Shown: in pieces, positions 2,429 through 38,620 of the stretch
Numbering within the stretch: the stretch's first letter is position 1
How the letters are laid out: each line of letters opens with the position of its first letter
Source of the DNA: a virus
Lineage: Duplodnaviria; Caudoviricetes
DNA: 38,986 nucleotides
Direction: 5' to 3' (one strand)
Virus record (IMG/VR): IMGVR_UViG_3300010206_000044
Span: 1-38,986 of that record
The notes under the pieces: generated by a model
The model's input: the letters and a program-made list of their open reading frames with translations, nothing else
Told to the model about the DNA's origin: nothing
The model's database searches: none
Made by a program: the position numbers and the translations under genes

Positions 2429-2569
2429 ATGAAAAAGAAAATTTTATCTGCACTATACGTGCATTTCAAATCGAATATTTACGAGTGGCTGCTTCTTATA
2501 TTATCAATCGCTTTTGTGATCAGCATGATGATAGGTGCTATTTGTCCACGTGACCCTCAACAGTTTTGA
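2429..2569 (+). CDS. Small membrane protein (46 aa, absent from ORF track)
   Basis: MKKKILSALYVHFKSNIYEWLLLILSIAFVISMMIGAICPRDPQQF; fills the gap and stops 2 nt before the transposase ATG. Confidence 0.5.
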   Translation: MKKKILSALYVHFKSNIYEWLLLILSIAFVISMMIGAICPRDPQQF

Positions 2570-2571
2570 TT

Positions 2572-4605: not shown

Positions 4606-4629
4606 AACACCAATTAAAACACCAAAATA

Positions 4630-7733: not shown

Positions 7734-7776
7734 TAATAATAACCAGTTCCTCACACGGAACACAAAACAGAAAATT

Positions 7777-8211: not shown

Positions 8212-8219
8212 ATTAATCA

Positions 8220-8246
8220 GTGGAAGTACTCTCGCAGTACTTCCAC
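8220..8246. other. Perfect 11-bp hairpin directly upstream of the DGR1 targets
   Basis: GTGGAAGTACT-CTCGC-AGTACTTCCAC. Confidence 0.75.
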
Positions 8247-8260
8247 GTAATAAAAAGAAT

Positions 8261-8740
8261 ATGAAAAAACAACTATTTATAGAAGAATCGGAAGCTCGCA
8301 GCCTTTACAGAACTGCCACTCCTGAATTTAAACAAATGCTCGAAACCACTTTTGGAAAAGAGTTTTTCTCGCAGAAAATTACTGACCGTATTAAAACATA
8401 CGAGGATGCTTGTGCTGAACTTGGAATTAGCTTCTTAACTGAAAAAGAATTTAGCACTTCAGGTCTTAAAGGTGATGAAATTATATTACGTAAAATCAAA
8501 ACTATTACTGAAGCATTAAACGAAGGTTGGAAACCAGACTGGACAAACGCAGATCAATACAAGTACTATCCTTGGTTCCGCATGTCTTCCGGGGGCTTCG
8601 TTTTCTACGCTGCGAGTTACGCTTACTCGCTTGCGTATGCGGGTGACGCCTCGCGCCTTTGCTTTAAAAGCAGTGAACTGGCCGAATATGCCGGAAAACA
8701 ATTTCTGCAATTATACTCTGATTATATTCTATATCAATAA
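8261..8740 (+). CDS. DGR target protein 1 (159 aa, contains VR1)
   Basis: ATG 8261; IKTYEDAC motif; VR1 encodes SSGGFVFYAASYAYSLAYAGDASRLC. Confidence 0.9.
   Translation: MKKQLFIEESEARSLYRTATPEFKQMLETTFGKEFFSQKITDRIKTYEDACAELGISFLTEKEFSTSGLKGDEIILRKIKTITEALNEGWKPDWTNADQYKYYPWFRMSSGGFVFYAASYAYSLAYAGDASRLCFKSSELAEYAGKQFLQLYSDYILYQ
8583..8663 (+). repeat. DGR variable region VR1
   Basis: 81-nt ungapped match to TR1; 15 mismatches, all at TR adenines. Confidence 0.97.
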
Positions 8741-8770
8741 CCGCCGAAAGGCACAAAAACAATTTTACAC

Positions 8771-9148
8771 ATGGAAAAAGAAAAAGCAACAATGGAAAGC
8801 ATCAAAACAGTAGAAGATGCTTGTAATGTAACGGGAATGCCTGCCACTCCTGAGTTTAACGAAGTACCTGAGGAACTTCGCGAGTATTTAAAAGCCGTAT
8901 ATGAGGCTGTAGTTATAACCATGGCACTTGTTGGCGATTGGAAGGCTGACTGGAACGACAGTAACCAACGTAAATGGTTCCCTTGGTTCCGCATGTCTTC
9001 CGGGGGCTTCGTTTTCAGCGATTCGGTTTGCGCTTACTCGTATGCGCGTGCGGGTTACGCCTCGCGCCTTTGCTTCCCAACTGAGGAATTGGCACGATAT
9101 GCAGGCCGTCAGTTTACTGACGTTTACAGCAGAATTATTCTGAAGTAA
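8771..9148 (+). CDS. DGR target protein 2 (125 aa, paralogue of target 1, contains VR2)
   Basis: IKTVEDAC motif; WKADW..PWFRMSSGGFVF..SRLCF shared with target 1. Confidence 0.9.
   Translation: MEKEKATMESIKTVEDACNVTGMPATPEFNEVPEELREYLKAVYEAVVITMALVGDWKADWNDSNQRKWFPWFRMSSGGFVFSDSVCAYSYARAGYASRLCFPTEELARYAGRQFTDVYSRIILK
8994..9074 (+). repeat. DGR variable region VR2
   Basis: 81-nt ungapped match to TR1; 16 mismatches, all at TR adenines. Confidence 0.97.
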
Positions 9149-9156
9149 TAACAAAT

Positions 9157-9365
9157 AGGCTGTTTGTCTTTGTGAGGTTGTCTTCCAGGGGCTTCGTTTT
9201 CAACGATACGAATTACGATAACTCGAATGCGAATGCAGGTAACACCTCGCACCTATGCTAAAAAGATACAGATACAAAGACAAAGGCCTTGCCACTTGGC
9301 AAAAAATAACTTACTCTAATGTGTGCCGGTAGCCAAAGGCGAACGCTCGCAAACGAAAAGCAAAG
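9157..9365 (+). ncRNA. DGR RNA 1: template repeat TR1 (9179-9259) plus structured flanks
   Basis: Non-coding, AAY-rich copy of VR1/VR2 (21 adenines); enclosed by TTTGTCTTTGT (9163-9173) / ACAAAGACAAA (9274-9284); two hairpins before the RT start. Confidence 0.95.
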
Positions 9366-9367
9366 CA

Positions 9368-10363
9368 ATGAAAAGACACGGAAACTTATATGAACAGGTA
9401 TGCAGCGAGGACAATATGGTTCTCGCTTGGGAGAAAGCCAGAAAAGGCAAAACAAACACATACGGTGTGAGGCTCTTTGAAAAGGATTTGGAAAACAACA
9501 TGAAGCAGTTGCGAGATGAACTCGCATCCGGAACTTATCGGACTTCGGAATATAGCGTATTTACCATTTACGATCCGAAAGAACGCGAGATATACCGGCT
9601 TCCTTTCCGGGACAGAATCGTTCACCATGCTATCATGAATGTGATGGAGCCTATATGGACAAGTATATTCATTCAGCATACATACAGTTGCATAAAAGGG
9701 CGCGGAATACATGCCGTTTTAAAGGCTTTGAAACGAGATTTAAACGATGTTGAAAATGCCCGGTACTGCCTAAAAATGGATGTGAAAAAGTTTTATCCTA
9801 GCGTGGATCACGAAATACTAAAAGCAATTATCCGAAAAAAGGTAAAAGATAACCGGTTGCTTAATTTGCTTGATCTGATTATTGACAGTGCGCCTGGTGT
9901 TCCAATAGGAAATTATCTAAGTCAGTTTTTCGCCAATCTGTATCTGAGCTATTTTGATCATTGGTTGAAAGAAACGAAGCAAGTAAAGTATTACTACAGA
10001 TATGCTGACGACATGGTGATACTTGCACCGGATAAGCCGTATTTAAACAAGTTGTTGACCGAAATAACCTTTTATCTGTACATTGAATTAAACCTGCAGT
10101 TAAAGGGCAATTATCAGGTGTTTCCGGTCAATTCTCGCGGCATTGACTTCGTAGGTTACAAATTCTACCATACGCACATTTTAATGCGTAAAACGATTAA
10201 AAAACGGCTTTGCCGAAAGGCTGCAAAGCTCAATAAAAGCAAGCAAATAACAGACAAAGAATATAAAATTAAAATAGCTCCTTGGCTCGGTTGGGCTAAG
10301 CATTGTGATTCAAAAAACTTATTAAAAAAGGTACTCAAAAATGAAACGATTCTCGGATTTTAA
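9368..10363 (+). CDS. DGR reverse transcriptase
   Basis: MKRHGNLY start, FRDRIVHHA, LKMDVKKFYPS, GVPIGNYLSQ (DGR-type SQ motif), YRYADD, GIDFVGY; adjacent to TR1. Confidence 0.97.
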   Translation: MKRHGNLYEQVCSEDNMVLAWEKARKGKTNTYGVRLFEKDLENNMKQLRDELASGTYRTSEYSVFTIYDPKEREIYRLPFRDRIVHHAIMNVMEPIWTSIFIQHTYSCIKGRGIHAVLKALKRDLNDVENARYCLKMDVKKFYPSVDHEILKAIIRKKVKDNRLLNLLDLIIDSAPGVPIGNYLSQFFANLYLSYFDHWLKETKQVKYYYRYADDMVILAPDKPYLNKLLTEITFYLYIELNLQLKGNYQVFPVNSRGIDFVGYKFYHTHILMRKTIKKRLCRKAAKLNKSKQITDKEYKIKIAPWLGWAKHCDSKNLLKKVLKNETILGF

Positions 10364-10658
10364 TATAACAACAGGAACTGACAAAAATATATTTGTAGTG
10401 CCTGTAATTTCAATAGATGAGTTGACTAATTGTGAGGTTGAGATATTAGATTATGAAAAAGGCGTTAAAACACGTCACGGCGAAAACAGGTATATCGTGA
10501 AAGTTAAGTACGAAGGTTCAGAACGAAAGTTTTTCACGAATGCAGCCCCAATTAAAGAGGCATTAGATAAAGTATCAAAGTCAGATTTCCCATTTGTGGC
10601 TGTTATTAAACAGCAGCGTTTTGGAAGTGGGAGTGGTAAAACATTTTATTTTACATGA
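10341..10658 (+). CDS. Hypothetical beta-rich protein overlapping the RT end; candidate DGR accessory factor
   Basis: 105 aa; overlaps the RT 3' end by 23 nt. Confidence 0.7.
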   Translation: MKRFSDFNITTGTDKNIFVVPVISIDELTNCEVEILDYEKGVKTRHGENRYIVKVKYEGSERKFFTNAAPIKEALDKVSKSDFPFVAVIKQQRFGSGSGKTFYFT

Positions 10659-10659
10659 T

Positions 10660-10935
10660 ATGGAACTGAATACTGAATTAGACAGATTACGCAAATATGC
10701 ACCAATTGATGCAGAGCTCAAACGAGCAGAGAAACTACACCCAAATTATCCTAAAGATATGTTTATGCAACTTGCAATAATGCAAGAGGAAGCTGGCGAG
10801 GTAACTAAGGCAGTTTTAGACTATCATTATGCGGCGGATACAGTTGAACACATTAAAGAAGAGTTGATACAAACAGCTGCTATGTGCATGCGAATGTTAG
10901 GGGGTTTAGAAAATGAACAATCTACCGAAAAGTAA
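10660..10935 (+). CDS. MazG-like nucleotide pyrophosphohydrolase
   Basis: EEAGEV...EELIQTAA motifs; ATG at 10660. Confidence 0.7.
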   Translation: MELNTELDRLRKYAPIDAELKRAEKLHPNYPKDMFMQLAIMQEEAGEVTKAVLDYHYAADTVEHIKEELIQTAAMCMRMLGGLENEQSTEK

Positions 10936-22690: not shown

Positions 22691-23833
22691 ATGGCATTCC
22701 CCGGAGTTTCAATAGAAGTAGAAAACGGCAATCTGCAAAGTGCAGTTGCCGTTCTCGATGGCGTTCCTGCTTTGGTTGCAACTGCTAATACTGCCGGTCT
22801 TATCGGTACTGTTACAGCTGTGTACAGTTTACAGGATGCCATTTCAAAAGGTTTTACACTTGCTGCTGAGCCTTTTATTTATGGATTGCTGAAAGTGTAT
22901 TATGATGAACTTGGTGGTAGTCAGTTGCTGTATGTAATGGGGGTAGCCGAAACGGTAACCATGACTGATGTTGTGACTTCTACCAATGCCAGCGGACTTG
23001 TAAAGTTGTTGAATGCTCAAACAGCGGTAAACTTAGTTGCTATTGCACGTAAACCGGTAGCCGGTTACAATGCAGGTAATGCTTTTCTTGACTCAGATGT
23101 AGCCGCCGCTGTTACTGCAAGTAAAACGCTTTTGGCAGCACGTCAAGCTAAAAATATGCCTGTAAGGCTGTTTATTGAAGGCCGTGTTGTTAATGAAAAT
23201 ACAGCAAACGCCTACAGCCCGAATACGGCAACCAACGGTTTTGCAAGTGTGGTGCTTGGTGGCACTACCGCTAATGGTTCTGCTGCTGTTACACTTGCTT
23301 TGGCACGTGCTGTAAAATATCCGGCTCATGTAAAACTTGGCAGTGGCCAAAATGGAGCTTTGTCGGTAAGTTCAATTTATGTAGGAACTAAAAGTATTGA
23401 TTTGCGTACCGATATGGAAACGCTCCACGATGCCGGATTCCTGACATTTCATAAGCGCCCTGGTATTGCTGGTTATTTCTTTGGCCGGGATAATATGTGT
23501 TCGATTGATGATTTCAATATCCTGGTACATGGACGTGTAATTGACAAAGCGCAGCGCATTGCTGCTATTGCCACCACACCGTACATTGAGGACTATATGC
23601 GAATCAATGCTGATGGAACTATCAACGAAAACGATGCTGATTACATGGAGTCGCTTGTGAAAACTGCGATTATGAGTAAAATGAGCGGACAAATTTCGGA
23701 TGTAAAAGTGGTGATCGATACTGCTCAAAACATTGTAGAAAATTCAACATTGAACATTCAGGTGTCAGTGCTTCCGTTAGGTTATCTGACGTGGATCAAT
23801 ATTACTTTAGGTTTAACCACTCAAACAGTTTAA
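22691..23833 (+). CDS. Tail sheath protein (DUF2586-like)
   Basis: 'PGVSIEVENGNL', 'LHDAGFLTF', 'RVIDKAQR'; precedes the tube gene. Confidence 0.85.
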   Translation: MAFPGVSIEVENGNLQSAVAVLDGVPALVATANTAGLIGTVTAVYSLQDAISKGFTLAAEPFIYGLLKVYYDELGGSQLLYVMGVAETVTMTDVVTSTNASGLVKLLNAQTAVNLVAIARKPVAGYNAGNAFLDSDVAAAVTASKTLLAARQAKNMPVRLFIEGRVVNENTANAYSPNTATNGFASVVLGGTTANGSAAVTLALARAVKYPAHVKLGSGQNGALSVSSIYVGTKSIDLRTDMETLHDAGFLTFHKRPGIAGYFFGRDNMCSIDDFNILVHGRVIDKAQRIAAIATTPYIEDYMRINADGTINENDADYMESLVKTAIMSKMSGQISDVKVVIDTAQNIVENSTLNIQVSVLPLGYLTWINITLGLTTQTV

Positions 23834-25083: not shown

Positions 25084-25241
25084 AAAAGGGTAAAGCGTCA
25101 AAGCACGATTTAGAAACAAATACAGTTTTCGGGCTGATGTGGTTTGGTTCTGAAGCTTTGAAATGGCCGGAAGAGGTTTTTTATTACAGAACAGGAATAG
25201 CCCTGAAATTATGGGAAAAAGGAGTTGGTAAATCATTATGA
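25056..25241 (+). other. -1 frameshift site and GT-like extension
   Basis: A8G at 25056-25064; -1 frame open for 59 codons (KLFLQSLEKG...WEKGVGKSL) to TGA 25239-25241, overlapping the tape measure ATG. Confidence 0.8.
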
Positions 25242-26932
25242 ATATAGTTGAATTTGCATTAAAGTTTAAAGATTTAGCGAGTAGTGAACTGGGAAAGTTC
25301 GGTACTCAGGCTAAACGCACATTCGATAATGCAGGTAGATTAACCAACGACTTAACCGGAAAGAACAAAATACTCGGTAGCAGTTACGATGTACTTCAGC
25401 AAAAAATACGTCAGGTTGAGAGCGTAATCCGCACATCTACTATACCGAGCCAAATACGCGAAGCCCGGCGCGAACTGGCCGCACTGCAACGGCAGTCGGT
25501 CAGACATCCGGGTAATATATCTTTTGGTGGTGGAAGTTCAAGAGGCGGAGGCTTTATGTCCGGAGCTTTAGGTATGGCAGGAATGGCAAAGTTTGCCGGC
25601 CCGGCTGCGTTGCTTGGAGTAGGTATGGCTGCCGGTCGGTTTTTTGGGGAATCATTCAATAAAGGGCTAGAGCGGCAACAAATAAAAACCACTTTCAATG
25701 TACTTGCAGGTAGCGAAGCTGCAGGTGGTAAATTGACACAACAGTTGGTTGATCTTGAAACAAAAACAATTCTTGGTAGCGAAGTATTTAAAAATGCTCA
25801 AACCATGATGGGTTTTGGTTTTAAAGATACCGAAGTGCTTAGCAATATGAAAATGCTTGGCGATATAAGTATGGGTAATGCCGACAGGCTTGGAATGCTT
25901 ACACTTGCATTTTCGCAGTCGAGAGCTGCCGGTAAACTTATGGGTCAGGATTTACTTCAGTTTGTCAATGCCGGGTTCAATCCTCTTGAATATATGGTGA
26001 AACGTACCGGTAAAAGCATGATGGAGCTTAGAACTGACATGCAGGAAGGGCGCATCAGTTTCGGAATGGTTCAACAGGCCTTTAAGGATGCAACCAGCGA
26101 GGGCGGAAAGTACAACAATATGCTCGAAACAATAGGTAAAACGCCTGCCGGTATGAGAGCACAGATTCAGGGACAATGGAATAATATAAAAGTCGGATTT
26201 GGTGAAGCTTTTATGCCGTTTATCTCTATGGGACTGAAATTGATTACTGCGCTTATGCCTGTTATCGAAGGGATCATAAAGCCAATGTCAAATGGAATTG
26301 AAATAGCCGCTAAATGGATGAAGTCTTTAACTACCGAAGCTGGAGGGCTTGGCGGTTGGATTGAAATAATAAAGAATAATTTTACTTATGCTGTTTTTCC
26401 GGTTATTAGTAAAATATGGTCATTGTTTACGGATATAGTTGGTTCTGTAATTGAGTTTGTAAGTCAATCAACATTACTAAAAGATATATTTACAGGAATA
26501 TCTTTGATTTTTACCGGTGTAATGGGTGCTGTTGGATTGTTGATTGATGGTTTAAAATGGGTGTTCGACAATGTAGTTATGCCAATACTTAAAGGCATTG
26601 AGTGGGTTTACCGTGCATTTATGGGTAGAGATACCAAAGGTGTATTTACAAAAACAGTAAAAACTGAAGCGGGAAAAACGCTTACTGAAGCAACAAACAC
26701 CGATCTATTAAATAATATATCTCAAAATACAGCTGCTAATGCTGAGGCTTCAAAAGGTACTGAAAAAGCTATTTCCGGAGGTGGCCCGAAAGTGATCAAT
26801 ATCACTGTCCAAAAGTTTTTAGATGCTATTAATATTAATTCAACTACGTTGGAAGCGGGAGTAACCGATATTGAAGGAAAGATACTCGAAATGTTTGCAC
26901 GTGTTGTAAGTCAGGGAGCAGTTGCAATATGA
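25238..26932 (+). CDS. Tape measure protein
   Basis: 'MLGDISMG..RL..LAFSQ..AAGKLMGQDLLQFVNAGFNPL'; Ala/Gly-rich, helical. Confidence 0.92.
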   Translation: MNIVEFALKFKDLASSELGKFGTQAKRTFDNAGRLTNDLTGKNKILGSSYDVLQQKIRQVESVIRTSTIPSQIREARRELAALQRQSVRHPGNISFGGGSSRGGGFMSGALGMAGMAKFAGPAALLGVGMAAGRFFGESFNKGLERQQIKTTFNVLAGSEAAGGKLTQQLVDLETKTILGSEVFKNAQTMMGFGFKDTEVLSNMKMLGDISMGNADRLGMLTLAFSQSRAAGKLMGQDLLQFVNAGFNPLEYMVKRTGKSMMELRTDMQEGRISFGMVQQAFKDATSEGGKYNNMLETIGKTPAGMRAQIQGQWNNIKVGFGEAFMPFISMGLKLITALMPVIEGIIKPMSNGIEIAAKWMKSLTTEAGGLGGWIEIIKNNFTYAVFPVISKIWSLFTDIVGSVIEFVSQSTLLKDIFTGISLIFTGVMGAVGLLIDGLKWVFDNVVMPILKGIEWVYRAFMGRDTKGVFTKTVKTEAGKTLTEATNTDLLNNISQNTAANAEASKGTEKAISGGGPKVINITVQKFLDAININSTTLEAGVTDIEGKILEMFARVVSQGAVAI

Positions 26933-27508: not shown

Positions 27509-28537
27509 ATGTTTTTAATGACAAGTAACATAACGATAGGTGATTACACTGCTATTAAGCCAAAGTCGGTAAAATGGAAGTGTAGTGTTTCTAATTTCGT
27601 TGATACGTGTAGCATTGAACTTCCGTTAAGAACTTATTTAAGAACAAATGACAATATTCTACTAATTTATCCTGACGGAACTACCGAAAAAAGAATATCC
27701 GATTTAGCAGCAAAACAAGGTGTTATTTTTACTGAAGGATTAGCCGTTTCGGTTGATTTGGGCTATAACAACCGAAATACAACCCGATTTATGGGATTTG
27801 TAAAACGAATCAATTATGGAAAACCATTTGTGATTGAATGTGAGGGTTACAGTTATTTACTCAAAGATAAGGTATTTACAAAAAGCTATTCAAATACTTC
27901 TGTAAAAGCTATTTTAAGCGATTTAGTAGCAGGTACCGACATACTTCTTTCGGATGCTATTCCGGTAATTCCACTGAAAAATGTGGTGTTCAAAAACTGC
28001 CCAGGACTAAAGGTGTTGGAATGGATGCAAAAGGAGCTATTGTTGTCTGTGTTTTTTGACTTCAATACACTTTATGTGGGAGCTTCAAAATATGGACTTA
28101 AAAAACCGACGGTTAAACTTCAGCTTGGCTGGAATACTGTTGACGATGGCGGGTTAAAAAAGGCTGTAAAGGGTTCGGACATTATAATACATGTAGTAGC
28201 CAAAGATAGTGCCGGAAAAGTGAAGCGCACAAAATCGGATCAGAAAAAATACAGCACAACTAAAGAGGTAAAAATACGCTCCGGGATGCCGGATGCTATT
28301 GTGAAAGAAATTTCAAACGAGTTGCAGAAACTTGAAAATTTTAGTGGTTACAAAGGAGATATTACCTGTTTTCTTGAACCGCACATTGAAAATGGATTTG
28401 TAGTAAAAAATGTAAATGATAAATTCCCTGATCGCGAAGGAAGCTTTTTTGTAGAATCGGTTGACGGTTCTTTCAGCAGTTCCGGTGGTCGCCAGGTGAT
28501 AACACTCAGATATTATGGCACAGTGGACGGAGGATGA
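27509..28537 (+). CDS. Baseplate hub (Mu gp44 / P2 gpD-like)
   Basis: 'DTCSIELP', 'VDLGY', 'IECEGYSYLLK'; size and position. Confidence 0.75.
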   Translation: MFLMTSNITIGDYTAIKPKSVKWKCSVSNFVDTCSIELPLRTYLRTNDNILLIYPDGTTEKRISDLAAKQGVIFTEGLAVSVDLGYNNRNTTRFMGFVKRINYGKPFVIECEGYSYLLKDKVFTKSYSNTSVKAILSDLVAGTDILLSDAIPVIPLKNVVFKNCPGLKVLEWMQKELLLSVFFDFNTLYVGASKYGLKKPTVKLQLGWNTVDDGGLKKAVKGSDIIIHVVAKDSAGKVKRTKSDQKKYSTTKEVKIRSGMPDAIVKEISNELQKLENFSGYKGDITCFLEPHIENGFVVKNVNDKFPDREGSFFVESVDGSFSSSGGRQVITLRYYGTVDGG

Positions 28538-29364: not shown

Positions 29365-30885
29365 ATGGTAAGTTGTTATTATGATGTTGACACTAATATG
29401 TGTCGCGTTGGCGGTAAAGATTATTCCGCAGGCAATTGTGTTCTTTCTCAGTCAGATGGTCGCGTTACTCTTGAAATTGATGGCCGGTGTCGTATAGATG
29501 GCGTTTTACTTAGTCAGATAGTCGATAAATACGGTAATGCATATCCGGATTATGATACCTTCCGTACAGCCATAAAAAATTTTTTCGTTAACGCCTCTGT
29601 CAGTAATACCGCTGATTGGACTACTTTGATAGAGGCTCAATTTAGTTACGGTGTTCGAGTTGACTTGTTGAGTTCAAATCCAACACTTACAAGGATAGGA
29701 AATCTTGAACTACATAAAACTTTACCGATTCATAAGTTAATGAGGGGTTGTTTGCAAAAAGAGGACGGATCAGTTAATTATTATTTGAATCCGACAAACT
29801 GGGCGCAAAAATCAGATGGAACTGCATCGGTTCTCGATGGAACTGATGGAGATGTACAAGTTCATCTGCCTAGGCGATATTTTAAATGCGAAAAGATAAC
29901 ACCTATTGTTTGGGATGTCAGATATTCGGACAGACAAATTCCCGGATATACACTTATTCAGGATGAATATGTATCGGCATTTGAAGCATCATTGAATAGG
30001 ACTACTAATAGATTGTGCAGTGTGGTAAATACTAGCATGACATATAGGGGTGGTACAAACGAAGCTACTTATGATGGTACATCTAAATCATTATTGGGAA
30101 AACCTGTTACAAACACAAATCTGACAAATTTTAGAATCTATGCGAGAAACAAGGGATCTATCAGATGGAATTGTAATGTATATTCAATTCAAACGCAAAT
30201 ATTCTGGCTCTTTGCAGTTGAGTATGCTACGTTAAATTCTCAGTTGCCTGTTGCTGGATTAGATGCTAATGGCTATCGTACAGGTGGATTGGGAAATGGA
30301 ATAACAACGGCGAACGATACCGAATGGTTAAATTTCAATGGACGCAATCCATTCTGTAATTGCGGGGTTACTAATTCGCTCGGCAATGGTAGTGGTGAAG
30401 TGTCATTTACTGTCACGGATTTTGGTGGTGCAGGTGTGAACAGATCGTTTACAGCTAACCGATATCGCGGCATTGAAAATCCGTTTGGCCATTTATGGAA
30501 ATGGACGGATGGCGTTTTGGTCGACGTAAAAACAGATGCAGCTGGTGGTACAAGTAAATTATACACTAGCTCTGATGCTTCAAAATTTAGCTCTGTAGCT
30601 TTTACTGACTACGATTATAAAGGCTTAATTACCCGTGATGAAGGATTTATCAAAACAATTATGTTCGGAGCATCTGGAGATATAATGCCGACTACTGTCG
30701 GTGGATCATCCGCTACTTATTTTGCCGACTATTTCTATCGCGACATTACAGCATCAGTTATTAAGGGTGTGTTGTTTGGCGGTTATGCTGCGGATGGTTC
30801 GACTGCGGGTCTCGTTTTTTCGAGTACGGCTTCTTCGCCTTCGCTTGCGTATTCGGCCATCGGCTCCCGGCTTTGCTTTATTTAG
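29365..30885 (+). CDS. DGR target protein 3; tail-associated putative receptor-binding protein with C-terminal CLec-like variable domain
   Basis: 'DGTDGDVQV', 'YRGIENPFGHLWKWTDG', C-terminal 'VLFGG.A..G..AG...IGSRLCFI'; carries VR3. Confidence 0.9.
   Translation: MVSCYYDVDTNMCRVGGKDYSAGNCVLSQSDGRVTLEIDGRCRIDGVLLSQIVDKYGNAYPDYDTFRTAIKNFFVNASVSNTADWTTLIEAQFSYGVRVDLLSSNPTLTRIGNLELHKTLPIHKLMRGCLQKEDGSVNYYLNPTNWAQKSDGTASVLDGTDGDVQVHLPRRYFKCEKITPIVWDVRYSDRQIPGYTLIQDEYVSAFEASLNRTTNRLCSVVNTSMTYRGGTNEATYDGTSKSLLGKPVTNTNLTNFRIYARNKGSIRWNCNVYSIQTQIFWLFAVEYATLNSQLPVAGLDANGYRTGGLGNGITTANDTEWLNFNGRNPFCNCGVTNSLGNGSGEVSFTVTDFGGAGVNRSFTANRYRGIENPFGHLWKWTDGVLVDVKTDAAGGTSKLYTSSDASKFSSVAFTDYDYKGLITRDEGFIKTIMFGASGDIMPTTVGGSSATYFADYFYRDITASVIKGVLFGGYAADGSTAGLVFSSTASSPSLAYSAIGSRLCFI
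30766..30875 (+). repeat. DGR variable region VR3
   Basis: 110-nt ungapped match to TR2; 20 mismatches, all at TR adenines. Confidence 0.97.
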
Positions 30886-30908
30886 CGTTCGCGGGGCTTT
30901 GTTAAAAA

Positions 30909-31132
30909 AGGTTGTTCATTGCAAGTGTGTTGTTTGGCGGTAATGCTACGAATAGTTCGAATGCAGGTCTCGTTTATTCGAATACGAATAATTCGCCTTC
31001 GAATGCGAATTCGACCATCAGCTCCCAGCATTGTAAATTTTTGATGTAATGAAAACCCTGCCTCTTGGCAAAAAAATACATAAAAACAAGATCGTTGGTA
31101 GCGCAAGCGAAGGCGATTAAAGTAAAGCAAAG
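30909..31132 (+). ncRNA. DGR RNA 2: template repeat TR2 (30924-31033) plus structured flanks, with no adjacent RT
   Basis: Intergenic AAT-rich copy of VR3 (27 adenines); enclosed by TTCATTGCA (30915-30923) / TGTAATGAA (31045-31053); same 3' hairpins as the TR1 RNA. Confidence 0.95.
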
Positions 31133-31157
31133 AGTTTAAAGTGATAAATTAAAATAT

Positions 31158-31478
31158 ATGATTGTAACGTACAAAACTATACCGATATCTCTGGAGCTAG
31201 TTCCAGATGGTTATCATCTTTTTCGATTCGACATTCTACAGGTAGATGGTGGATTCACGGCTCACGAAGTGAGAATTGACGGTGCGATTGATGCTAAAAA
31301 AATCAAAGCAATTGCCATATCTGAAAAATGGGGCGATGGCGTTGAAGCGAAGCTAATTAATGACTACAACGAGTACAAGCTCGGCATTGGCGACGTAGCT
31401 GCTGAAGTTGCATATATGCAATTTCTTGCTGATAGAAAAGCATTGAAAAACTATGTTGATCAAGTTGTAGGAGAATGA
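31158..31478 (+). CDS. Hypothetical protein directly after TR2
   Basis: 106 aa; stop overlaps the next ATG. Confidence 0.75.
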   Translation: MIVTYKTIPISLELVPDGYHLFRFDILQVDGGFTAHEVRIDGAIDAKKIKAIAISEKWGDGVEAKLINDYNEYKLGIGDVAAEVAYMQFLADRKALKNYVDQVVGE

Positions 31479-31744
31479 AAGCACTCGAAGGACAATCGTT
31501 TTTAGATATTGCCATTCAGGAGACTGGCTCGGTTGATTCAGCGTATTTTATTGCACTTAAAGCGGATATGAGCATAACAGATGAGCCTCTGACCACTACT
31601 GACATTGATACGTTAAATGTTGTAGCTGCACCTATTAAGCAATACTTTTCAAGCAAAGGATTAAGGCCATCGACTGGCATAAATGCATCTAAAGACGAAG
31701 AAAAAAGAATATTTGATTACACATTTGATTATACATTTAATTAA
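31475..31744 (+). CDS. LysM/gpX-like baseplate protein
   Basis: 'GQSFLDIAIQETGS'; C-terminal IFDYTFDYTFN. Confidence 0.7.
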   Translation: MKALEGQSFLDIAIQETGSVDSAYFIALKADMSITDEPLTTTDIDTLNVVAAPIKQYFSSKGLRPSTGINASKDEEKRIFDYTFDYTFN

Positions 31745-31745
31745 C

Positions 31746-32618
31746 ATGGCAAACACAGCAACATATTGGAAAAACAAAATCGGTGATTATTACATGAGCA
31801 ATGAAATAGTTCAGCGCAGGTATGAGCTTAGTAGTTCTGATCTCGAAGCCGGGTTCAGTGCTGTGTTTAGCATTGCAGCATTTGAATCGATTCTTTTTTA
31901 TGCTGTCGGCTACTGCATATATGTTTTTGAGCTTGTAATTGATATATTTAAAGCAGAAATTCAAGATAAGATTGATGCTAGATATTTGGCAACTTCTCCA
32001 TGGTGGCATACTCAGGCTTTGCAATTTCAAAGAGGAGATGATTTGTACCTAAATAAAAAAACATTTACCTACGAATACGCAACGTTAGATGCGTCTCGGC
32101 AGATTATAAAGCGCGTTGCAGTTCGTGAATCTGCAAGTGGAGAAGCTCCTTGTAAGGTGAAGTTATACGTTGCAACAGAATCGAATGGAACAATTGAGGC
32201 TCTTAGTTCAAATGACTTGGAACTGTTTGATATATATGCTAAAAAAATAAGGCCTGCCGGGGTGCTTGTTGAGTGCATCAGTACTGCAGGGGATACTGTT
32301 TCGTTTGGATTAGTTGTCAACTACAATCCACTCATCCTTAAACAAACAGGGCAAAGGATAACAGGAACTGATTACCCTGTAGAGGATGCTGTTAATGAAT
32401 TTATTAACACACTCAACGATATTAATTTTGGAGGTAAACTGAACTTATCGAAGCTGATCGATCGGGTTCAAATGGCCGAAGGTGTGATTGATGTTCAAAT
32501 AACGAGTTGTGTAATTCGCGACCTAGAACCTGTAACATGGGGAACTTATGCAAGCCAAAGCGGCTGGTTTGTAGTGAATGAAATCAACGTAAATTATCAA
32601 CCACAAACGGAAATATAA
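31746..32618 (+). CDS. Baseplate J-like (gp47) protein
   Basis: 'WW..QAL.FQ.GD', 'IIKRVAV', 'KIRPAGV', 'LIDRVQ..EGVID'; ATG at 31746. Confidence 0.75.
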   Translation: MANTATYWKNKIGDYYMSNEIVQRRYELSSSDLEAGFSAVFSIAAFESILFYAVGYCIYVFELVIDIFKAEIQDKIDARYLATSPWWHTQALQFQRGDDLYLNKKTFTYEYATLDASRQIIKRVAVRESASGEAPCKVKLYVATESNGTIEALSSNDLELFDIYAKKIRPAGVLVECISTAGDTVSFGLVVNYNPLILKQTGQRITGTDYPVEDAVNEFINTLNDINFGGKLNLSKLIDRVQMAEGVIDVQITSCVIRDLEPVTWGTYASQSGWFVVNEINVNYQPQTEI

Positions 32619-33670
32619 TGAATATCGACTTTAAAAGATTACTTCAGCTATTGTTTCCCACGTTATTACGTCGTGACATGACAGCGATTACCGCTATTGG
32701 TGCTGTATTTCAACTTATGTACGATGAGTTCCGTGCATGGCAGGCTGATATCAGATTACAGGCATCTACTACTTGTCAAGTGATGTATTTAGAGCTTATG
32801 TTGAATTATCGATTACTGAATACTTTCAATCGTGTAATTTATATCACCGATGCAGATGGCATATCAACTGATTTTATAATTAATATACCTGAATCTGTAA
32901 CAGTTGATTATAGTCGGCTCCAAAGTTTAATAAACAAATATAAGCTATATGGAAAACGATTTTCGACCGAACAGTCTACATATGCTTACGATGTTATTTG
33001 GACTAATTACGTATGCGAAAAGAAACAACTACAAATTGGTGAATATTATAATGGAGGGTATGTTGGTGCCATTATTGGTGTTCAATATCAAATTGTTTCT
33101 CCTCTTGGAAGACATAATTGGAGCTCTTCTAAACTCATTGCTTCCGGTATGGGTAGTAATTGGCATTTGCCAAGTTACATCGAGTTGCAACAATTTGTTG
33201 GAAATAGAGACAAAATAGGAATTCAATATAATGAAGAGCTATGGTCTTCTGATGAACAGTCTACTGATGAGGCAATAGCTGTTAGGCTCTATCAAGGCGG
33301 AAACACAATATCTTTTCCTAAAACAAATGTCATGTTAGCGTGGGCTGTGAAGAGTATTGCAACCTCCTCTGGTTTCGTCAATTCAGGTCATCAGCGTGCT
33401 CGAACGCTAAGAGTAATAAAATATGAATCAGGCTTGAATATTGGATTTGATGACTTTGATGTTAGGCTCCAATTTGTCTTCGATGGCATTACTTATCAGA
33501 GTGTTGATGTTGATTATTTGTCTACGATGCCGATGATAGAGTATATAGAACGTATCAATGCATATGCTGGGTATATAACTAATTTAAAACAGAATGACTA
33601 TCCTGGGATATTTATTAAAAAAGATGAAGCAAGAATTGAAAACAACGATTCTTGCCCGATTAACAATTAA
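32618..33670 (+). CDS. Baseplate gp48-like N-terminus fused to an Lcl/DUF1566-like domain
   Basis: N-terminal 'QVMYLE..LN..', 'KYKLYGK'; internal 'IGEYYNGG...W..NWHLPS..EL...LWSSDE'. Confidence 0.6.
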   Translation: MNIDFKRLLQLLFPTLLRRDMTAITAIGAVFQLMYDEFRAWQADIRLQASTTCQVMYLELMLNYRLLNTFNRVIYITDADGISTDFIINIPESVTVDYSRLQSLINKYKLYGKRFSTEQSTYAYDVIWTNYVCEKKQLQIGEYYNGGYVGAIIGVQYQIVSPLGRHNWSSSKLIASGMGSNWHLPSYIELQQFVGNRDKIGIQYNEELWSSDEQSTDEAIAVRLYQGGNTISFPKTNVMLAWAVKSIATSSGFVNSGHQRARTLRVIKYESGLNIGFDDFDVRLQFVFDGITYQSVDVDYLSTMPMIEYIERINAYAGYITNLKQNDYPGIFIKKDEARIENNDSCPINN

Positions 33671-33674
33671 ATTT

Positions 33675-33911
33675 ATGACAAAGTTATCAGACGCACAGTC
33701 TAAAGCTGCGCTTATCAAACAAGAAACAGAGCGTGCTGCTAATACGCATCAACGCCTTGGTGAGGCTATTGAGGTTCTAACTGATGCTGTTGAAGCATCC
33801 AGTTCTATTTCTTCTGTTCCTCCAGTAGATGCTCACAATGGAGCAAAGTGGGTTTCGGCAATTTCGGGAAAAGAGTTTACTATGTATAACGGACAATGGG
33901 TTGAATTTTAA
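33675..33911 (+). CDS. Hypothetical tail-region protein
   Basis: ATG 33675; 'IKQETERAANTHQRLG'. Confidence 0.6.
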   Translation: MTKLSDAQSKAALIKQETERAANTHQRLGEAIEVLTDAVEASSSISSVPPVDAHNGAKWVSAISGKEFTMYNGQWVEF

Positions 33912-33914
33912 TTT

Positions 33915-36900
33915 ATGGAAACAAGAGATACTTATAAGAAATATGACGGCTCTATAGCCGGTTTAGTTGTGATTGCAGTAGGCAGTATTAAAGATAATGT
34001 TTTTAAGTCAACAGGAAAGCGTTCTTCAGGATTTTACGTACTTAAAAATAGCATTGTTGGGCGACTCACGGGGTATTCTTCTGACAATTGGTTCGAGGTT
34101 AAACTTTTTAATCCTGTATGGAATTACAACGGAGAGCCTATGTATTATTATGCAGTTAACGATTCGTATTCTCAGTTTGTCGATGATTCAGAGGCAAGGC
34201 TGGAAGCAAGAACTGTGTTTCGCGACTATTCAACTCGTGATACCAACAAAAACACATTTCCACATGTTGCAGCTGATTACAAATCGATGTGTTACAATCC
34301 GAAACAAGATGCATTTGCGCATTGGAATGTAACTGACACCTATTTTGGAAGCGCAGATTGGAGGCGTGAATACATAAATCAGGTTCTAGGTGGAAATGGT
34401 GATCAGTACGTTTTCGTCAGTGAAAATTATGATCCTAAACCAATCGATTCTTTTGGCATTGTCAATTTAATACCTAGCGCTCGAAAGTTAAAGGCTATCT
34501 TTGAAACTTACTGGCTTGATTCATATGTAATATTTTCAGGTATTTGTCTTAGCAAAACTAATAATTTGCCGACGGTTAATGACATATTCGTTAATGGTGG
34601 CACTGATTATCCGTTTAAATTTGATTCAGGAAATCCTCCTTACATTGAGGTTATTGATTTAGAACCAGACACAACATATTTTTGCCGCCCATTCTTTAAG
34701 CGAAACAACGGCACATATGTATATGGTGCTATGCAGTCATTTTCGACCTTAAATGAGCCTGTATTACCGGTTTTGATACTTGATATTCCTGAAGTAAATT
34801 TAACACAAAGTTCTGCTAAAATAATTGTTCGTTGCTTTGATACTGGGGATTCGTCTATCGTTAGCAGAGGCATCAAAATTGGGTCAACAATTGAAGCTGT
34901 TGAAGACGTTGAAATTATTAATGTTAGTACGCAAAGATGGGAGGCTAATCTTGTTGGGCTACTGCCGGCTACAAGGTATTATGTTCAGGTTTATGCCACT
35001 ACTGAAGATGGAACCTCTAGTACTAGTACATATGTTCAGTGGCAAGAACTGTCGCCAGGTTGGGCACATCCTGTAGAAAATAAAACAGGTTATTTTACGA
35101 CAAAGCAGGTTGCAGGTTATCCAGTACTTTATGAGAAATTACCAACAAATATAACAGATAGTTCTGTTATATTAGGTGGTGGAATTAGCTCTGATGGTGG
35201 CAGTACTATCTTGCAGACTGGATTTGTTTATAGTTCTGAAAATATTATGCCGACAGTTTTAGATGCGTATATAGATTCAACTGCAGTGACAGATGATAAT
35301 ACGTTTTATACAAATGTATTAAATCTTAAAGCTGCTTCTAAATTCTATTACAGAGCAGCTGCGCGCACATCGAAAGGTTGGTCATATAGTCCTGGATCGG
35401 GTAGTTTTATTACAGGTGGCGTGAGTCTGAAGACTCTTTCTGTTTCTTTGATAACTAAAAATAGTGCAAAAGTTAGTGCGATAATTGAATCTTCAGAATC
35501 AGAAGTGACCGAACGAGGTATTTGTGTCGGTTTGATGACGCAGCCAACTTTAAAAACAAGTGCTGATCTCGGACTTAAATTGGGTAGTTATGAGGCGAAT
35601 TTAACAGCTTTACAGTCAGGTAAATTATATTATGTTCGATCATATGCTATTGCTGCTGGCAAGGTATATTACGGTTCAGAAATGACATTTATTACGCTTG
35701 CTGACTCTACGTCTTTAGTACCAGTTATTAACATAGTAAGTTCTACTACAGACAGTGAAGGAACCTGGGCGACAATTCGATTAACGTCTATGCCAGTACC
35801 TGTGTTTAGCATAGGTATTGGAATATCTATTGTGCCGCCAGATAATTTCGGCGATTTTATAGATTATTTTGAAAGTGAAGAGTCTGTAATAGAGATTAAT
35901 AGAGGTTATAGAGAAAGGGCTCTTTATAATGATACTTCAGAGTATTACGTTACACCATATGCCAACTATGGAGGTGATGTGGCTCTTGGAGCTCCTGTAA
36001 GATGTATTTATTTACCCAATCCTGTTGGTGATTTTGATGTTACGCATCAATTGGATTATAATTCAGCGGATAATGTGGCAAAGGTTATAATAAGTTCAAC
36101 ATCTTTATCTATTATCAAATGGGGCGTTGTTTGGAGTTCGAATCAATTACCTCTAACTGACGTTTTGAAGAGAACAAAAGAAAGTTCATTGACAAATGTA
36201 ATTGTGCTTGACAATGTCCTCCCAATAGGGATCACATATATACAAGCCTATGCGGTTGATCAGTTAGGGGCGGTTGTTTATTCAAACGTTCAATCTGTCA
36301 TTAATGCTGATAAAACACCTATTTCAACAGATGATGTGTTGACATTTCCGGAGAATGCCTATATGGGTCAGACGCATGAACATAAAGGAAACGTCTGGGT
36401 AAAAACTGAAATAGGCTGGGAAAAGAAGTCATCTGCTACTCCAGCATCACGTAATTTAAGTGCGGCAATTAAAAAGGGAAACGATGATATCATCGCCCAT
36501 TTTAATAATATGTTATCTCGAAAATTAGAGAAGTATAGTGTTGATATTGTCGACGACGATGAATATGTTGCAATTGAAAACTTGAATAAAATATCAGCCG
36601 ATGGATTTTATATATTAACTTACCCTGGAGACTTTCCTGATGTTGGAATCGAAGATGGAATACCATTCAGGATGATAGTAGTAGACGGTGAAGATTCCGG
36701 TTTTATTACTCAATTTTTGATCACAAGGTCTTTTGTCACTAACAAATTGAAAGTGTATGTTCGAAGTCTTATTGATTATGAACCGCTAGAGGATTGGATT
36801 GACCTTATGCCCGATAATTTTGTGGTTTATGATTTTGCTCACGGAGCAGCAATGCCAGGAGATGGAATATCGTATTATATTGGTAGTATCCCAGATTTAG

Positions 36901-37232
36901 CACCAACTAATACGTATATGGTTTCCAGATCATTGATATGTCAGGTTTCGGGATTTGTGACGGAAGTTTCTTTATTGGCTAGCGTCGGAGGTTCCGTAGG
37001 AAGTAATGAATATTCAACTTTTGCAATTCATAATCATACCAAAGGTACAAGTAAGGTATTTGCTACCGATGTGACTCATTCAACATCTGAATTTCTTAAA
37101 AACTATAAGTTGTCGTCATCTTTGCAGGTTACATCTGGTGATCAGTTGTACATAAGATGGCTGACACCAAATTGGGTCACAAACCCAACAACAGTCCGAC
37201 ATAGATTTGATGTAAAAATATTAAATAAATAA
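33915..37232 (+). CDS. Large tail fibre/adhesin-like protein with FN3-like repeats
   Basis: Repeated 'L.P.T.Y..R.Y/F....G..YG...SF.T' units; 1105 aa. Confidence 0.7.
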   Translation: METRDTYKKYDGSIAGLVVIAVGSIKDNVFKSTGKRSSGFYVLKNSIVGRLTGYSSDNWFEVKLFNPVWNYNGEPMYYYAVNDSYSQFVDDSEARLEARTVFRDYSTRDTNKNTFPHVAADYKSMCYNPKQDAFAHWNVTDTYFGSADWRREYINQVLGGNGDQYVFVSENYDPKPIDSFGIVNLIPSARKLKAIFETYWLDSYVIFSGICLSKTNNLPTVNDIFVNGGTDYPFKFDSGNPPYIEVIDLEPDTTYFCRPFFKRNNGTYVYGAMQSFSTLNEPVLPVLILDIPEVNLTQSSAKIIVRCFDTGDSSIVSRGIKIGSTIEAVEDVEIINVSTQRWEANLVGLLPATRYYVQVYATTEDGTSSTSTYVQWQELSPGWAHPVENKTGYFTTKQVAGYPVLYEKLPTNITDSSVILGGGISSDGGSTILQTGFVYSSENIMPTVLDAYIDSTAVTDDNTFYTNVLNLKAASKFYYRAAARTSKGWSYSPGSGSFITGGVSLKTLSVSLITKNSAKVSAIIESSESEVTERGICVGLMTQPTLKTSADLGLKLGSYEANLTALQSGKLYYVRSYAIAAGKVYYGSEMTFITLADSTSLVPVINIVSSTTDSEGTWATIRLTSMPVPVFSIGIGISIVPPDNFGDFIDYFESEESVIEINRGYRERALYNDTSEYYVTPYANYGGDVALGAPVRCIYLPNPVGDFDVTHQLDYNSADNVAKVIISSTSLSIIKWGVVWSSNQLPLTDVLKRTKESSLTNVIVLDNVLPIGITYIQAYAVDQLGAVVYSNVQSVINADKTPISTDDVLTFPENAYMGQTHEHKGNVWVKTEIGWEKKSSATPASRNLSAAIKKGNDDIIAHFNNMLSRKLEKYSVDIVDDDEYVAIENLNKISADGFYILTYPGDFPDVGIEDGIPFRMIVVDGEDSGFITQFLITRSFVTNKLKVYVRSLIDYEPLEDWIDLMPDNFVVYDFAHGAAMPGDGISYYIGSIPDLAPTNTYMVSRSLICQVSGFVTEVSLLASVGGSVGSNEYSTFAIHNHTKGTSKVFATDVTHSTSEFLKNYKLSSSLQVTSGDQLYIRWLTPNWVTNPTTVRHRFDVKILNK

Positions 37233-37234
37233 TT

Positions 37235-37597
37235 ATGAAACTAGTAATAAATTTCTTGCTATTTCTCATTGCGGTGATATTATTTCCGCTGTTAACGCCA
37301 CTAAATGTGGTAATTGTGACAATTCAGAAAAAGAGCATTAAGGCTATGTCGGGTTACTTTTTGGATACTGCCCGAAGGATTGATGTTTATGGTTGTGGTG
37401 AGTTCAGGGCTTTGTTGAACTTAGTTTTTATAACTAAGAATGGAATCACATTTAAATCAGATGGACATACTATCTCACACTTCTTAGGCGTGAACCAACT
37501 TGCTGGCACGCTCAGCCTATCTGGAAGGATGTTTACAAAATTTCTGAATTTGTTGGACAAAAATCATTGCGTTAGGGCAATAGATAATAGTTTTTAG
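37235..37597 (+). CDS. Hypothetical membrane protein
   Basis: N-terminal TM; 'TIS..LG.N...TL', 'LDKNHC'. Confidence 0.7.
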   Translation: MKLVINFLLFLIAVILFPLLTPLNVVIVTIQKKSIKAMSGYFLDTARRIDVYGCGEFRALLNLVFITKNGITFKSDGHTISHFLGVNQLAGTLSLSGRMFTKFLNLLDKNHCVRAIDNSF

Positions 37598-37605
37598 ACT
37601 TAATT

Positions 37606-37753
37606 GGAGGTAAAAAAGCCTCCGCCAATTTAAGCGGCTCCTACACCGCCTAAACATATAAGGTGCACGAACACCCGAGACGAAGGCTTAAAGTCTTCAC
37701 CCGGTGTTCGTGCACCTTTGGTATATATGTAATAGTAGGAGACTACAAAAATA
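37606..37753. ncRNA. Structured RNA element upstream of the methylase (leader or antisense sRNA)
   Basis: 16-bp perfect stem 37660-37675 / 37703-37718; outer CTCCTAC/GTAGGAG; minus-strand TATTTTTG box (37753-37746) and terminal U-run. Confidence 0.6.
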
Positions 37754-37783
37754 GTATTAGTTTTTTAAATAAAAAATAGAAAG

Positions 37784-38620
37784 ATGAGTAAAAATTACAA
37801 TCAAAGTCCCCTGCCTTTTCAGGGGCAAAAGCGGCGGTTTAGTACCGCCTTTAAAGAGGCTTTAAACGAGTTTAAAACAGCGCCGGTATTTGTTGATTTG
37901 TTTGGTGGTTCGGGTTTACTGAGCCATTGGGCTAAGTCTCAATATCCGGATGCAACGGTTGTCTATAATGATTATGATGATTATCATTTGCGTGTAGCTA
38001 ACATAGAAAGAACCAACGCGCTGTTGGCCGAATTTCGCGTTATACTGAAAGATGCACCAACTGACAAGGTAATAAGCAAAGAGGCCAAAGTAGCCATCCT
38101 GAAGGCCGTAAAACACGAAGAAAAGGCGAACGGATATGTTGATTACATTACTATATCTTCAAGCCTGTTGTTTAGTATGAATTACGCAACGAATTACGAC
38201 GATCTGAAAAAGCAATGCATGTATAACTGTGTGCGTAAGAATGATTATGAGTTGGCCTCTGATTATTTATCCGGTGTGGATGTGGTGTGTATGGATTACC
38301 GCGAGTTATTCAACCGTTGGAATCGCGTGTCCGGGGTGGTTTTCTTCATTGACCCGCCGTATTTATCAACTGACTGTAGCACATACAGTAATTACTGGAA
38401 GCTCGCTAATTATCTCGATGTGTTGCAGTGCCTAAAGGGAACGAACTACTTTTATTTTACTTCGAATAAGAGTTCGATATTGGAGTTAACAGATTGGTTG
38501 GAAAAGAACCTGGGCGGTGAGAATCCGTTTAGCGGTGCAACTAAAGTGGAAATGAATGCGCGCATGAACCATAATGCCGGATATACGGATATTATGATGT
38601 ATAAAAAAGCCGGGGCGTAG
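37784..38620 (+). CDS. DNA adenine methyltransferase (D12/Dam-like class)
   Basis: PLPFQGQK, DLFGGSG (SAM binding), FIDPPY (catalytic). Confidence 0.92.
   Translation: MSKNYNQSPLPFQGQKRRFSTAFKEALNEFKTAPVFVDLFGGSGLLSHWAKSQYPDATVVYNDYDDYHLRVANIERTNALLAEFRVILKDAPTDKVISKEAKVAILKAVKHEEKANGYVDYITISSSLLFSMNYATNYDDLKKQCMYNCVRKNDYELASDYLSGVDVVCMDYRELFNRWNRVSGVVFFIDPPYLSTDCSTYSNYWKLANYLDVLQCLKGTNYFYFTSNKSSILELTDWLEKNLGGENPFSGATKVEMNARMNHNAGYTDIMMYKKAGA

Follow-up and report, generated by a model that had tools for sequence, protein, structure and literature searches.

Can the template of a diversity-generating retroelement (DGR) remain in use when no reverse transcriptase (RT) gene stands beside it? 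Descriptions of DGRs, and searches for them, usually take such an element as a single RT with one template next to it. The question is raised by record IMGVR_UViG_3300010206_000044 (positions 1-38,986), an IMG/VR provirus of the Caudoviricetes with a CheckV completeness of 63%; the window, i.e., the whole stretch of DNA that was analysed, consists of the 38,986 bases of this record. It contains two template repeats (TR) and three variable repeats (VR). TR1, together with VR1 and VR2, belongs to an early module that includes the sole RT gene of the window. TR2 and VR3, the latter at the end of a tail protein gene, are located 20.6 kb away and are followed by a spacer RNA and by no RT gene. From the comparisons given below it appears rather probable that the tail cassette (VR3, TR2 and spacer 2) is a template unit without an RT of its own, likely still used, which the early RT and its accessory protein would copy in trans.

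Template and variable repeats

VR3 (30766-30875, plus strand) is localized at the 3' end of the tail target gene (29365-30885, plus strand; 506 aa; phrog_5302 «tail protein», E = 8e-107) and ends 10 nt before the end of this open reading frame (ORF). TR2 (30924-31033, plus strand), a second and different template repeat, lies 48 nt past the end of VR3 and 38 nt past the stop codon of the target. The two repeats align without gap over 110 nt with 20 mismatches, all of them at TR adenines (20 of 27) and none at another base. TR1 (9179-9259, plus strand; its BLAST match with VR1 runs to 9264) is the template repeat of the early module. Over 81 nt it differs at 15 positions from VR1 (8583-8663, plus strand, near the 3' end of early target gene 1) and at 16 from VR2 (8994-9074, plus strand, in early target gene 2), i.e., at 15 and 16 of its 21 adenines, again with no non-A mismatch. 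The probability that all mismatches fall on A under random placement (hypergeometric) is 2e-16 for VR3, 7e-12 for VR1 and 6e-13 for VR2.

All the mismatch counts of an earlier note on this DNA were thus reproduced. The same note had stated that VR3 is not derivable from TR1. In the best ungapped overlap TR1 and VR3 have 51% identity with 21 non-A mismatches in 79 nt, and TR1 is therefore ruled out as the template of VR3. A scan of both strands of the record gave no further site with at most 3 non-A mismatches to TR1 or TR2.

The statement that there is only one RT is likewise upheld as far as the 38,986 bases of the window go: there is one RVT_1 match, inside the ORF 9323-10363. This RT starts about 110 nt after TR1, so that the canonical layout, TR beside RT, holds for TR1. 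For TR2 the nearest RT is the same one, whose gene ends at 10363, i.e., 20,561 nt upstream; downstream of TR2 there is nothing resembling an RT. The description of TR2 as a cassette without RT also stands, with the addition that the full RT-associated spacer RNA has been kept.

Read in the frame of VR3, TR2 contains 8 AAT codons; AAY codons are reported as abundant in DGR templates in the available portion of the literature. The 3' ends of the repeats differ always in the same manner, ...CA(G/C)CTATG in TR and ...CG(G/C)CTTTG in VR (e.g., 31020-31033 vs. 30862-30875, and 9246-9259 vs. 8650-8663). This holds for every pair printed in both DGR families, early and tail (14 pairs shown per set, out of 57 and 81 distinct pairs). 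In the VR the conserved Arg-Leu of the motif SRLCF is encoded by these two substitutions, A>G and A>T near its 3' end. At least 2 of the 20 VR3 mismatches (this A>G and this A>T) are probably fixed marks of donor and recipient and not products of random mutagenesis. By analogy, these marks may be comparable with the elements IMH and IMH* of phage BPP-1.

A common spacer RNA of class RT-17

Spacer RNA 1 (9280-9367, plus strand) lies between TR1 and the RT gene, and spacer RNA 2 (31049-31134, plus strand) lies after TR2, with no RT gene following; both carry the RT-17 motif. The stretch from TR1 to the RT can be aligned with ~200 corresponding nt that begin in the 3' part of TR2 and extend into the flank behind it.

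A covariance model (R1) was built from 45 aligned early-module spacers, those of the window and of record G005 (described below) being excluded. The structure consists of a five-pair hairpin, an A run and then a second helix that encloses a short hairpin, with the conserved GGUAG and GAA on either side of it. It has 11 pairs, with 96.7% of cells paired and 9 pairs showing compensatory changes; this covariation was reached by none of 500 shuffles. In the window R1 finds exactly two sites, 9280-9355 (71.8 bits) and 31049-31122 (45.6 bits, E = 5e-9). Two sites are also found in G005 (78.1 and 49.4 bits), one in G001, the close relative discussed below (45.1 bits), and one in each of 32 canonical tail cassettes (26.7-70.2 bits); 4 loci without TR gave no match. 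Since R1 detects the element in 32 of 32 canonical tail cassettes, the spacer is common to both RT clades.

The Rfam model RF03020 (RT-17; gathering score 40.4) matches 9285-9367 with 43.8 bits and 31054-31134 with 45.8 bits, in both cases over its entire length (1-95). The first copy adjoins the RT gene and the second one adjoins the ORF 31158-31478, not an RT. It is RT-17 that occupies the interval from TR to RT in the two DGR families. The motifs RT-1 to RT-19 were defined by their vicinity to RT genes, RT-10 being located between TR and RT in BPP-1, and others may work in other DGRs, according to the available sections of PMC5737381. In BPP-1 the spacer adjacent to TR is required for priming of the complementary DNA (cDNA), as stated in the accessible part of PMC6182149. 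In the literature passages at hand only RT-10 is tied to a DGR. No description of RT-17 as a DGR spacer was found in open-access full text and bioRxiv; supplements of surveys may hold such cases.

Promoter and terminator scans (30500-31400 and 8000-10800), which are of limited value, gave no convincing plus-strand terminator between the tail gene and the TR2-spacer 2 segment. The spacer hairpins score as minus-strand terminator-like sites merely through the A run of the plus strand.

Origin of the cassette without RT

The relatives of the tail target form a set of 184 loci (80 viral, 24 from species genomes and 80 metagenomic). A TR and then an RT within 600 nt are present in 138 of them; 41 have no TR by the criteria used, and in 3 the TR is too near the contig end to judge. 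Only in L002 and L223, which are one and the same sequence, is a TR followed by 1,500 nt or more in which no RT is found. The RT of canonical tail cassettes lies 100-250 nt past the TR. Since 138 of the 184 loci carry the order target-TR-spacer-RT, the form without RT is the derived one.

The first gene after the cassette (31158-31478, plus strand; 106 aa; phrog_11557) marks the site of the missing RT gene. It starts 36 nt past spacer 2, and its homologs (30-32% identity) are found directly after the RT in three canonical cassettes (L012, L017 and L019). A 105-aa gene, candidate for a DGR accessory protein and described below, is confined in the window to the early module, and so is the RT; the tail cassette is thus without both proteins. 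As far as gene order goes, the position of the post-RT gene and the distribution of the accessory gene agree with a clean removal of the RT gene.

A quick maximum-likelihood tree of the RTs (99 rows) was computed, split, short and duplicate rows being left out; 22 early-type rows were kept, and the closest relatives (L082-L086) are absent from it. In this tree 21 of the 22 early-type RTs form one set with two tail-type rows (SH-aLRT 99). The set is nested among the tail-type RTs, and the RTs of the window and of G005 belong to the same nine-row group.

Some other loci of the set deserve mention. In L040, in L048 (G074) and in L060-L062 (G079) the RT occupies two separate frames or contains a stop codon, with TR/VR mismatches still exclusively of the A type; these may be decaying DGRs or sequencing errors. 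Six loci, i.e., L202 (a Runella salmonicolor contig), L208, L257, L279, L022 and L034, contain no TR-like repeat, RT or RT-17 spacer within 10 kb on either side, and their tail-target homologs have 41-46% identity. This tail protein also occurs in the absence of a DGR, or else its template is more distant.

Variation of VR3 after the loss of RT

G001, the record behind L002, is 98.4% identical to the window over ~29536-38250 (141 differences in 8,717 aligned bases) and unlike it outside that stretch. The RT-less junction is the same in both. TR2 is identical (110 of 110 bases), and so is the spacer, save one A in the A run. VR3 has 13 differences vs. ~1.8 expected from a background of 1.6%, and all 13 are localized at TR-A sites (P = 8e-10). 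Because the window and G001 share the RT-less junction, these changes arose, most simply, after the loss of the RT. It must be added that the stretch in common corresponds to the distal tail module, from inside the target gene (left break at ~29536) to beyond the gene of a large 1,105-aa protein.

The lack of non-A mismatches had been taken in the earlier note as a sign of recent activity, and the comparison with G001, i.e., 13 VR3 differences all at TR-A with an identical TR2, strengthens this point. The same note had held that an RT placed after TR2 in close relatives would make the cassette a frozen relic. One half of this argument fits: distant relatives, i.e., metagenomic loci with 41-48% protein identity to the tail target, have the RT directly after the TR, hence the cassette descends from a canonical one. 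The other half does not, since the only close relative is also without RT and is freshly diversified; TR2 therefore does not read as a frozen relic.

Contigs of sequencing runs extend the comparison. Those of runs X2 and X3 carry the VR3 of G001 type, and the 20.9-kb contig of X2 also has the RT-less junction. Run X6 (a contig of 456 nt) has a third VR3 combination at the listed positions, three being G001-like and ten window-like; this contig has 16 differences, of which 5 are listed, and invariance of TR2 is not claimed for it. In a 33-kb contig of run X4, positions 29600-31487 (1,886 bases) are replaced by 1,986 unrelated bases, both flanks matching the window. What is exchanged as an allele is the C-terminal four-fifths of the target together with the TR2 cassette, and the limits of the swap enclose precisely the diversified part. 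Since only 100 bases are gained, an added RT gene of ~1 kb has no room in it.

The runs were also compared with the early region (8100-10700): none of the matches comes from X6, and only diverged pieces were obtained from X7, X10 and X2, which is no proof of absence. X2 contains a 3.6-kb contig with a diverged TR1-RT-accessory stretch, at a depth of 9.5 vs. 9.0 for the contig with TR2. This is the only hint of an early-type RT in the G001-type phage.

Recurrence of the split layout

Of 10 long records with an early-type RT, a single one, G005, encodes the tail target as well. Its early module comprises VR1 (7714-7799), VR2 (8117-8202), TR1 (8300-8385), the RT (8443-9480) and a 105-aa ORF (9461-9775). 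The tail cassette, 18.5 kb further on, comprises VR3 (27988-28100), TR2 (28157-28269) and a spacer. TR2 and VR3 of G005 differ by 13 mismatches, which are A-only, and no second RT is present in G005. Compared with the window, the RT is 73% identical and the target 48% identical; with targets so distant, the two cassettes have long diverged. The survey of related phages for RT-less template cassettes, suggested in the earlier note, has returned G001/L223, without RT at the junction, and G005, with the same split layout.

Such a layout is rare. In 50 other early-module records, 11 of them with a completeness rating of 90% or more, two spacers never occur together, and exactly one is present in 49. 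An early-type RT in addition to the tail RT is absent from all of 31 canonical tail-DGR records, and an intermediate carrying two RTs was thus not encountered; a further RT-like frame in G083 (33% identity) contains a stop codon.

RT, early targets and candidate accessory protein

The DGR-type RT (9323-10363, plus strand) matches RVT_1 at 9584-10072 (E = 2e-15) and phrog_1423 (E = 1e-136), and no NCBIfam model at cut-off. The ORF list gives a GTG start at 9323. The ATG at 9368 (MKRHGNLYEQ...), directly after spacer 1, is the likelier start. The translation contains IGNYLSQ and YADD, which are hallmarks of DGR RTs. The 80 closest RT relatives in viral contigs have 62-88% identity, and 68 of them have an A-biased TR/VR pair just upstream, so the early module belongs to an ordinary and widespread type of DGR. 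These relatives often have two VRs in tandem small genes.

Early target gene 1 (8195-8740, plus strand; 181 aa) carries VR1 and early target gene 2 (8771-9148, plus strand; 125 aa) carries VR2. Both belong to phrog_11581 and are tandem paralogs with 48% identity. In the part encoded by the VR they are similar to the end of the tail target, with identity at 13 of 27 residues and a final SRLCF. These hypervariable paralogs sit in the early region of a Mu-like phage and not in a tail gene.

The gene of the candidate accessory protein (10341-10658, plus strand; 105 aa) is predicted to encode a small beta-barrel of the oligonucleotide-binding (OB) type. Its homologs (e.g., L105:4019-4333 and L036:11446-11706) occupy two positions: in the early-module loci listed, the one immediately past the RT, and in tail cassettes the interval between VR and TR, where they were seen in 9 of the 17 printed (~31-34% identity). 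The AlphaFold2 (AF2) model has a predicted local distance difference test (pLDDT) value of 90.6, and VIA-align gives only weak matches of the single-stranded DNA-binding (SSB), OB or RPA type, with Z up to 5.8. Foldseek against the PDB gave no significant match, and a profile search of the family against solved structures gave none below E = 0.16. The protein has no Pfam or NCBIfam family. Concerning Avd, no Pfam match to an Avd-type family was obtained in 18 ORFs around both modules and no NCBIfam match in 6 ORFs. The classes of DGR accessory proteins given in the available text of PMC5758913 are Avd, HRDC, MSL and CH1. On the basis of its position and model, the 105-aa protein may be an undescribed DGR accessory protein that stands in for Avd.

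Tail target and phage context

The AF2 model of the tail target, over residues 124-460, matches the DGR variable protein TaqVP (5vf4) with Z 10.9 and a root-mean-square deviation of 3.6 over 219 residues (VIA-align). The next match has Z 5.2; TvpA (2y3c) has Z 4.9, and enzymes resembling the formylglycine-generating enzyme (FGE) are lower. Foldseek against the PDB gave no significant match. The target thus shows a variable-protein fold of the C-type-lectin/FGE-like kind with the VR at the 3' end of its gene, though the VR3 part of the model is of low confidence (pLDDT 31-47). The protein has 32-45% identity with annotated «tail protein» genes of crAss-like phages.

Judging by PHROGs and Pfam matches, the host of both modules is a Mu-like transposable myophage: an early transposase and a transposition ATPase are found together with contractile tail genes. 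The transposase (2566-4605, phrog_310) is followed by the DNA transposition protein, an ATPase (4630-5490, phrog_296, AAA_22), and by a DUF3164 protein (7113-7733). The tail genes include tail sheath (22691-23833), tape measure (25238-26932) and baseplate hub (27509-28537), and a methyltransferase gene (37784-38620) lies after them. DUF4494, terminase, portal and major head protein genes were also recognized by PHROGs and Pfam. Megablast of 29365-31500 and 8100-10400 gave no near-identical DNA in named phages.

Proposed mechanism and competing explanations

The following scheme would account for the two modules. TR2 and spacer 2 would be transcribed, most simply as the 3' end of the transcript of the tail gene. 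The early RT, perhaps with the 105-aa OB-like protein, would bind spacer 2 in the same manner as spacer 1 and make an adenine-mutagenised cDNA of TR2, and this cDNA would replace VR3. One enzyme would thus diversify two small early proteins from TR1 and the tail receptor-binding protein from TR2.

Several observations weigh against this scheme. The RT of the window is only 54-64% identical to the RTs of canonical tail cassettes and belongs to a different branch; because of this distance, the use of TR2 by the early RT is an assumption of the scheme. The mean identity of spacer 2 is 0.60 to early-type and 0.57 to tail-type spacers, which is no clear difference; at the level of sequence there is thus no sign that spacer 2 has adapted to the early RT. 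That the early RT is the enzyme copying TR2 is an inference from the sequence comparisons. Nine identical non-A substitutions in VR3 are common to the window and G001, so part of the VR3 pattern has been inherited or selected and not newly drawn. The G001 contig (27 kb, 27% complete, with the early region outside the contig) contains no RT. Lastly, the run data are contigs, so that variation within populations is out of view.

The same gaps give room to an active TR2 served by another RT, encoded by a DGR of the host chromosome, by an unassembled part of the prophage or by a co-infecting phage with a canonical tail DGR of the same family. The record is 63% complete by CheckV and the source DNA is limited to it, which also counts against the early RT as the enzyme. 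In related phages it is common for a canonical tail cassette to have both an RT of its own and a spacer of this class (the 138 of 184 loci), and the G001 contig contains the cassette with no RT in its 27 kb. However, the window extends from the transposase genes (2566-5490) to the methyltransferase (37784-38620), i.e., over most of a Mu-like phage. In the window and in G005, where the RT-less cassette is present and the early region is reached, there is in each case exactly one RT, of early type, and no additional early-type RT is found among the 31 canonical tail-DGR records. A helper RT encoded elsewhere is accordingly considered unlikely, though it deserves more weight than the two explanations that follow.

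It is improbable that the cassette is dead, i.e., that the RT was deleted, retrohoming ended and VR3 was frozen, the adenine-only pattern being a fossil. The ancestral cassette did have its RT beside the TR, decaying cassettes do occur (the split or interrupted RTs of L040, L048 and L060-L062, and one stop codon in G079), and the absence of non-A mismatches is also expected soon after a loss. These points have to be set against the 13 VR3 differences between the window and G001, all at TR-A, in spite of the shared junction, the identical TR2 and a spacer that is the same save one A. Moreover spacer 2 is intact, above the Rfam threshold and slightly above the score of spacer 1, and the distant G005 also keeps TR2 and spacer without RT. 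A chimeric contig, in which the early region of one phage would be joined to the RT-less tail region of another, is very improbable. The assembly is of metagenome type and the group is mosaic, G001 sharing only ~29536-38250 with the window. But the layout is found again in G005, which is an independent record and comes from a different assembly, and a chimera leaves unexplained the missing RT after TR2 at a junction that is also present in G001, in L223 and in the 20.9-kb contig of run X2. Copying in trans by the early RT thus remains the preferred explanation for the tail cassette.

A wider and more tentative idea, which is held to be possible but somewhat doubtful, is that RT-less units made of a TR and an RT-17 spacer are portable «plug-in» cassettes, which would travel from one mosaic phage to another with tail-fibre modules and be read by any compatible DGR RT that is resident. 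If so, the RT of the recipient may be of another branch than the original enzyme of the cassette, and the recognition of template by RT would be modular, i.e., set by the fold of the spacer and not by linkage.

Comparison with known systems

The DGR of BPP-1 (mtd-avd-TR-spacer-brt) resembles the present system by a tail receptor-binding target with a 3' VR, by the adenine-specific transfer from TR to VR and by a structured spacer RNA directly 3' of the TR. According to the available text of PMC5758913, avd, TR and brt of BPP-1 are functional in trans from a plasmid. BPP-1 differs by having one TR beside RT and Avd, whereas the window has two TRs, one of them 20.6 kb from the sole RT. Its spacer is RT-10, whereas those of the window are RT-17, with the 105-aa OB-like protein in the accessory position.

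The canonical tail cassettes of Bacteroidota, Bacillota and crAss-like phages (target-[accessory]-TR-spacer-RT) have a homologous target, the same spacer class and a TR of ~110-117 nt, and their repeats likewise show the fixed A>G and A>T near the 3' end. The difference is that the RT follows the TR in these cassettes, whereas in the window the post-RT gene comes next.

DGRs with several TRs are known from Stenotrophomonas SKA14 and from the zeta crAss-like phages Lera and ct1yV3, as far as the consulted parts of the literature go. In these descriptions they resemble the window by one RT and several TRs, each with its own VR. The premise of the earlier note that extra targets normally share one TR thus needs softening. 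For Lera the accessible text reports non-A substitutions in the TR2 and TR3 pairs, which the authors suggest are no longer active, and for ct1yV3 the authors thought the extra TR/VR pairs probably inactive. Unlike Lera, the window has a second pair without non-A mismatch, with its own spacer, 20 kb from the RT and with change between phages.

Remote or incomplete DGR loci that depend on parts supplied in trans are described in the available portions of several reports: Thiohalocapsa PB-PSB1 (PMC10907252), partial DGRs of nanoarchaea (PMC4372165), the Trichodesmium DGR with one TR and 12 targets (PMC4143802) and two phage DGRs whose only target is 20 kb away (PMC5758913). What they share with the scheme proposed for the window is that machinery encoded at another place in the genome diversifies targets distant from the RT. 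In these systems, as they are presented there, the remote locus matches the TR adjacent to the RT, or intact variants keep the RT; in the window, on the contrary, the remote locus brings its own TR and spacer and would borrow only the protein or proteins. DGRs with several TRs and DGR parts acting in trans are therefore already known. A search of open-access full text and bioRxiv gave no natural unit consisting of a distinct TR plus spacer, without RT, far from the sole RT and with comparative evidence of activity; supplements of surveys may list such cases.

Significance

Surveys of DGRs that are anchored on the RT, or limited to its vicinity, would miss targets of this kind. If the explanation proposed here is true, an RT-17 RNA without an adjacent RT can mark a working template. 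As to the mechanism, one DGR RT would then serve more than one template RNA, the fold of the spacer and not gene linkage being what is needed; engineered DGRs already use reprogrammable TRs (PMC12875486, in the part available). With one RT, two templates and three targets, the system offers a genetic test bed. For the biology of the phage it would mean that the variability of a tail protein is tied to an enzyme of the early region.

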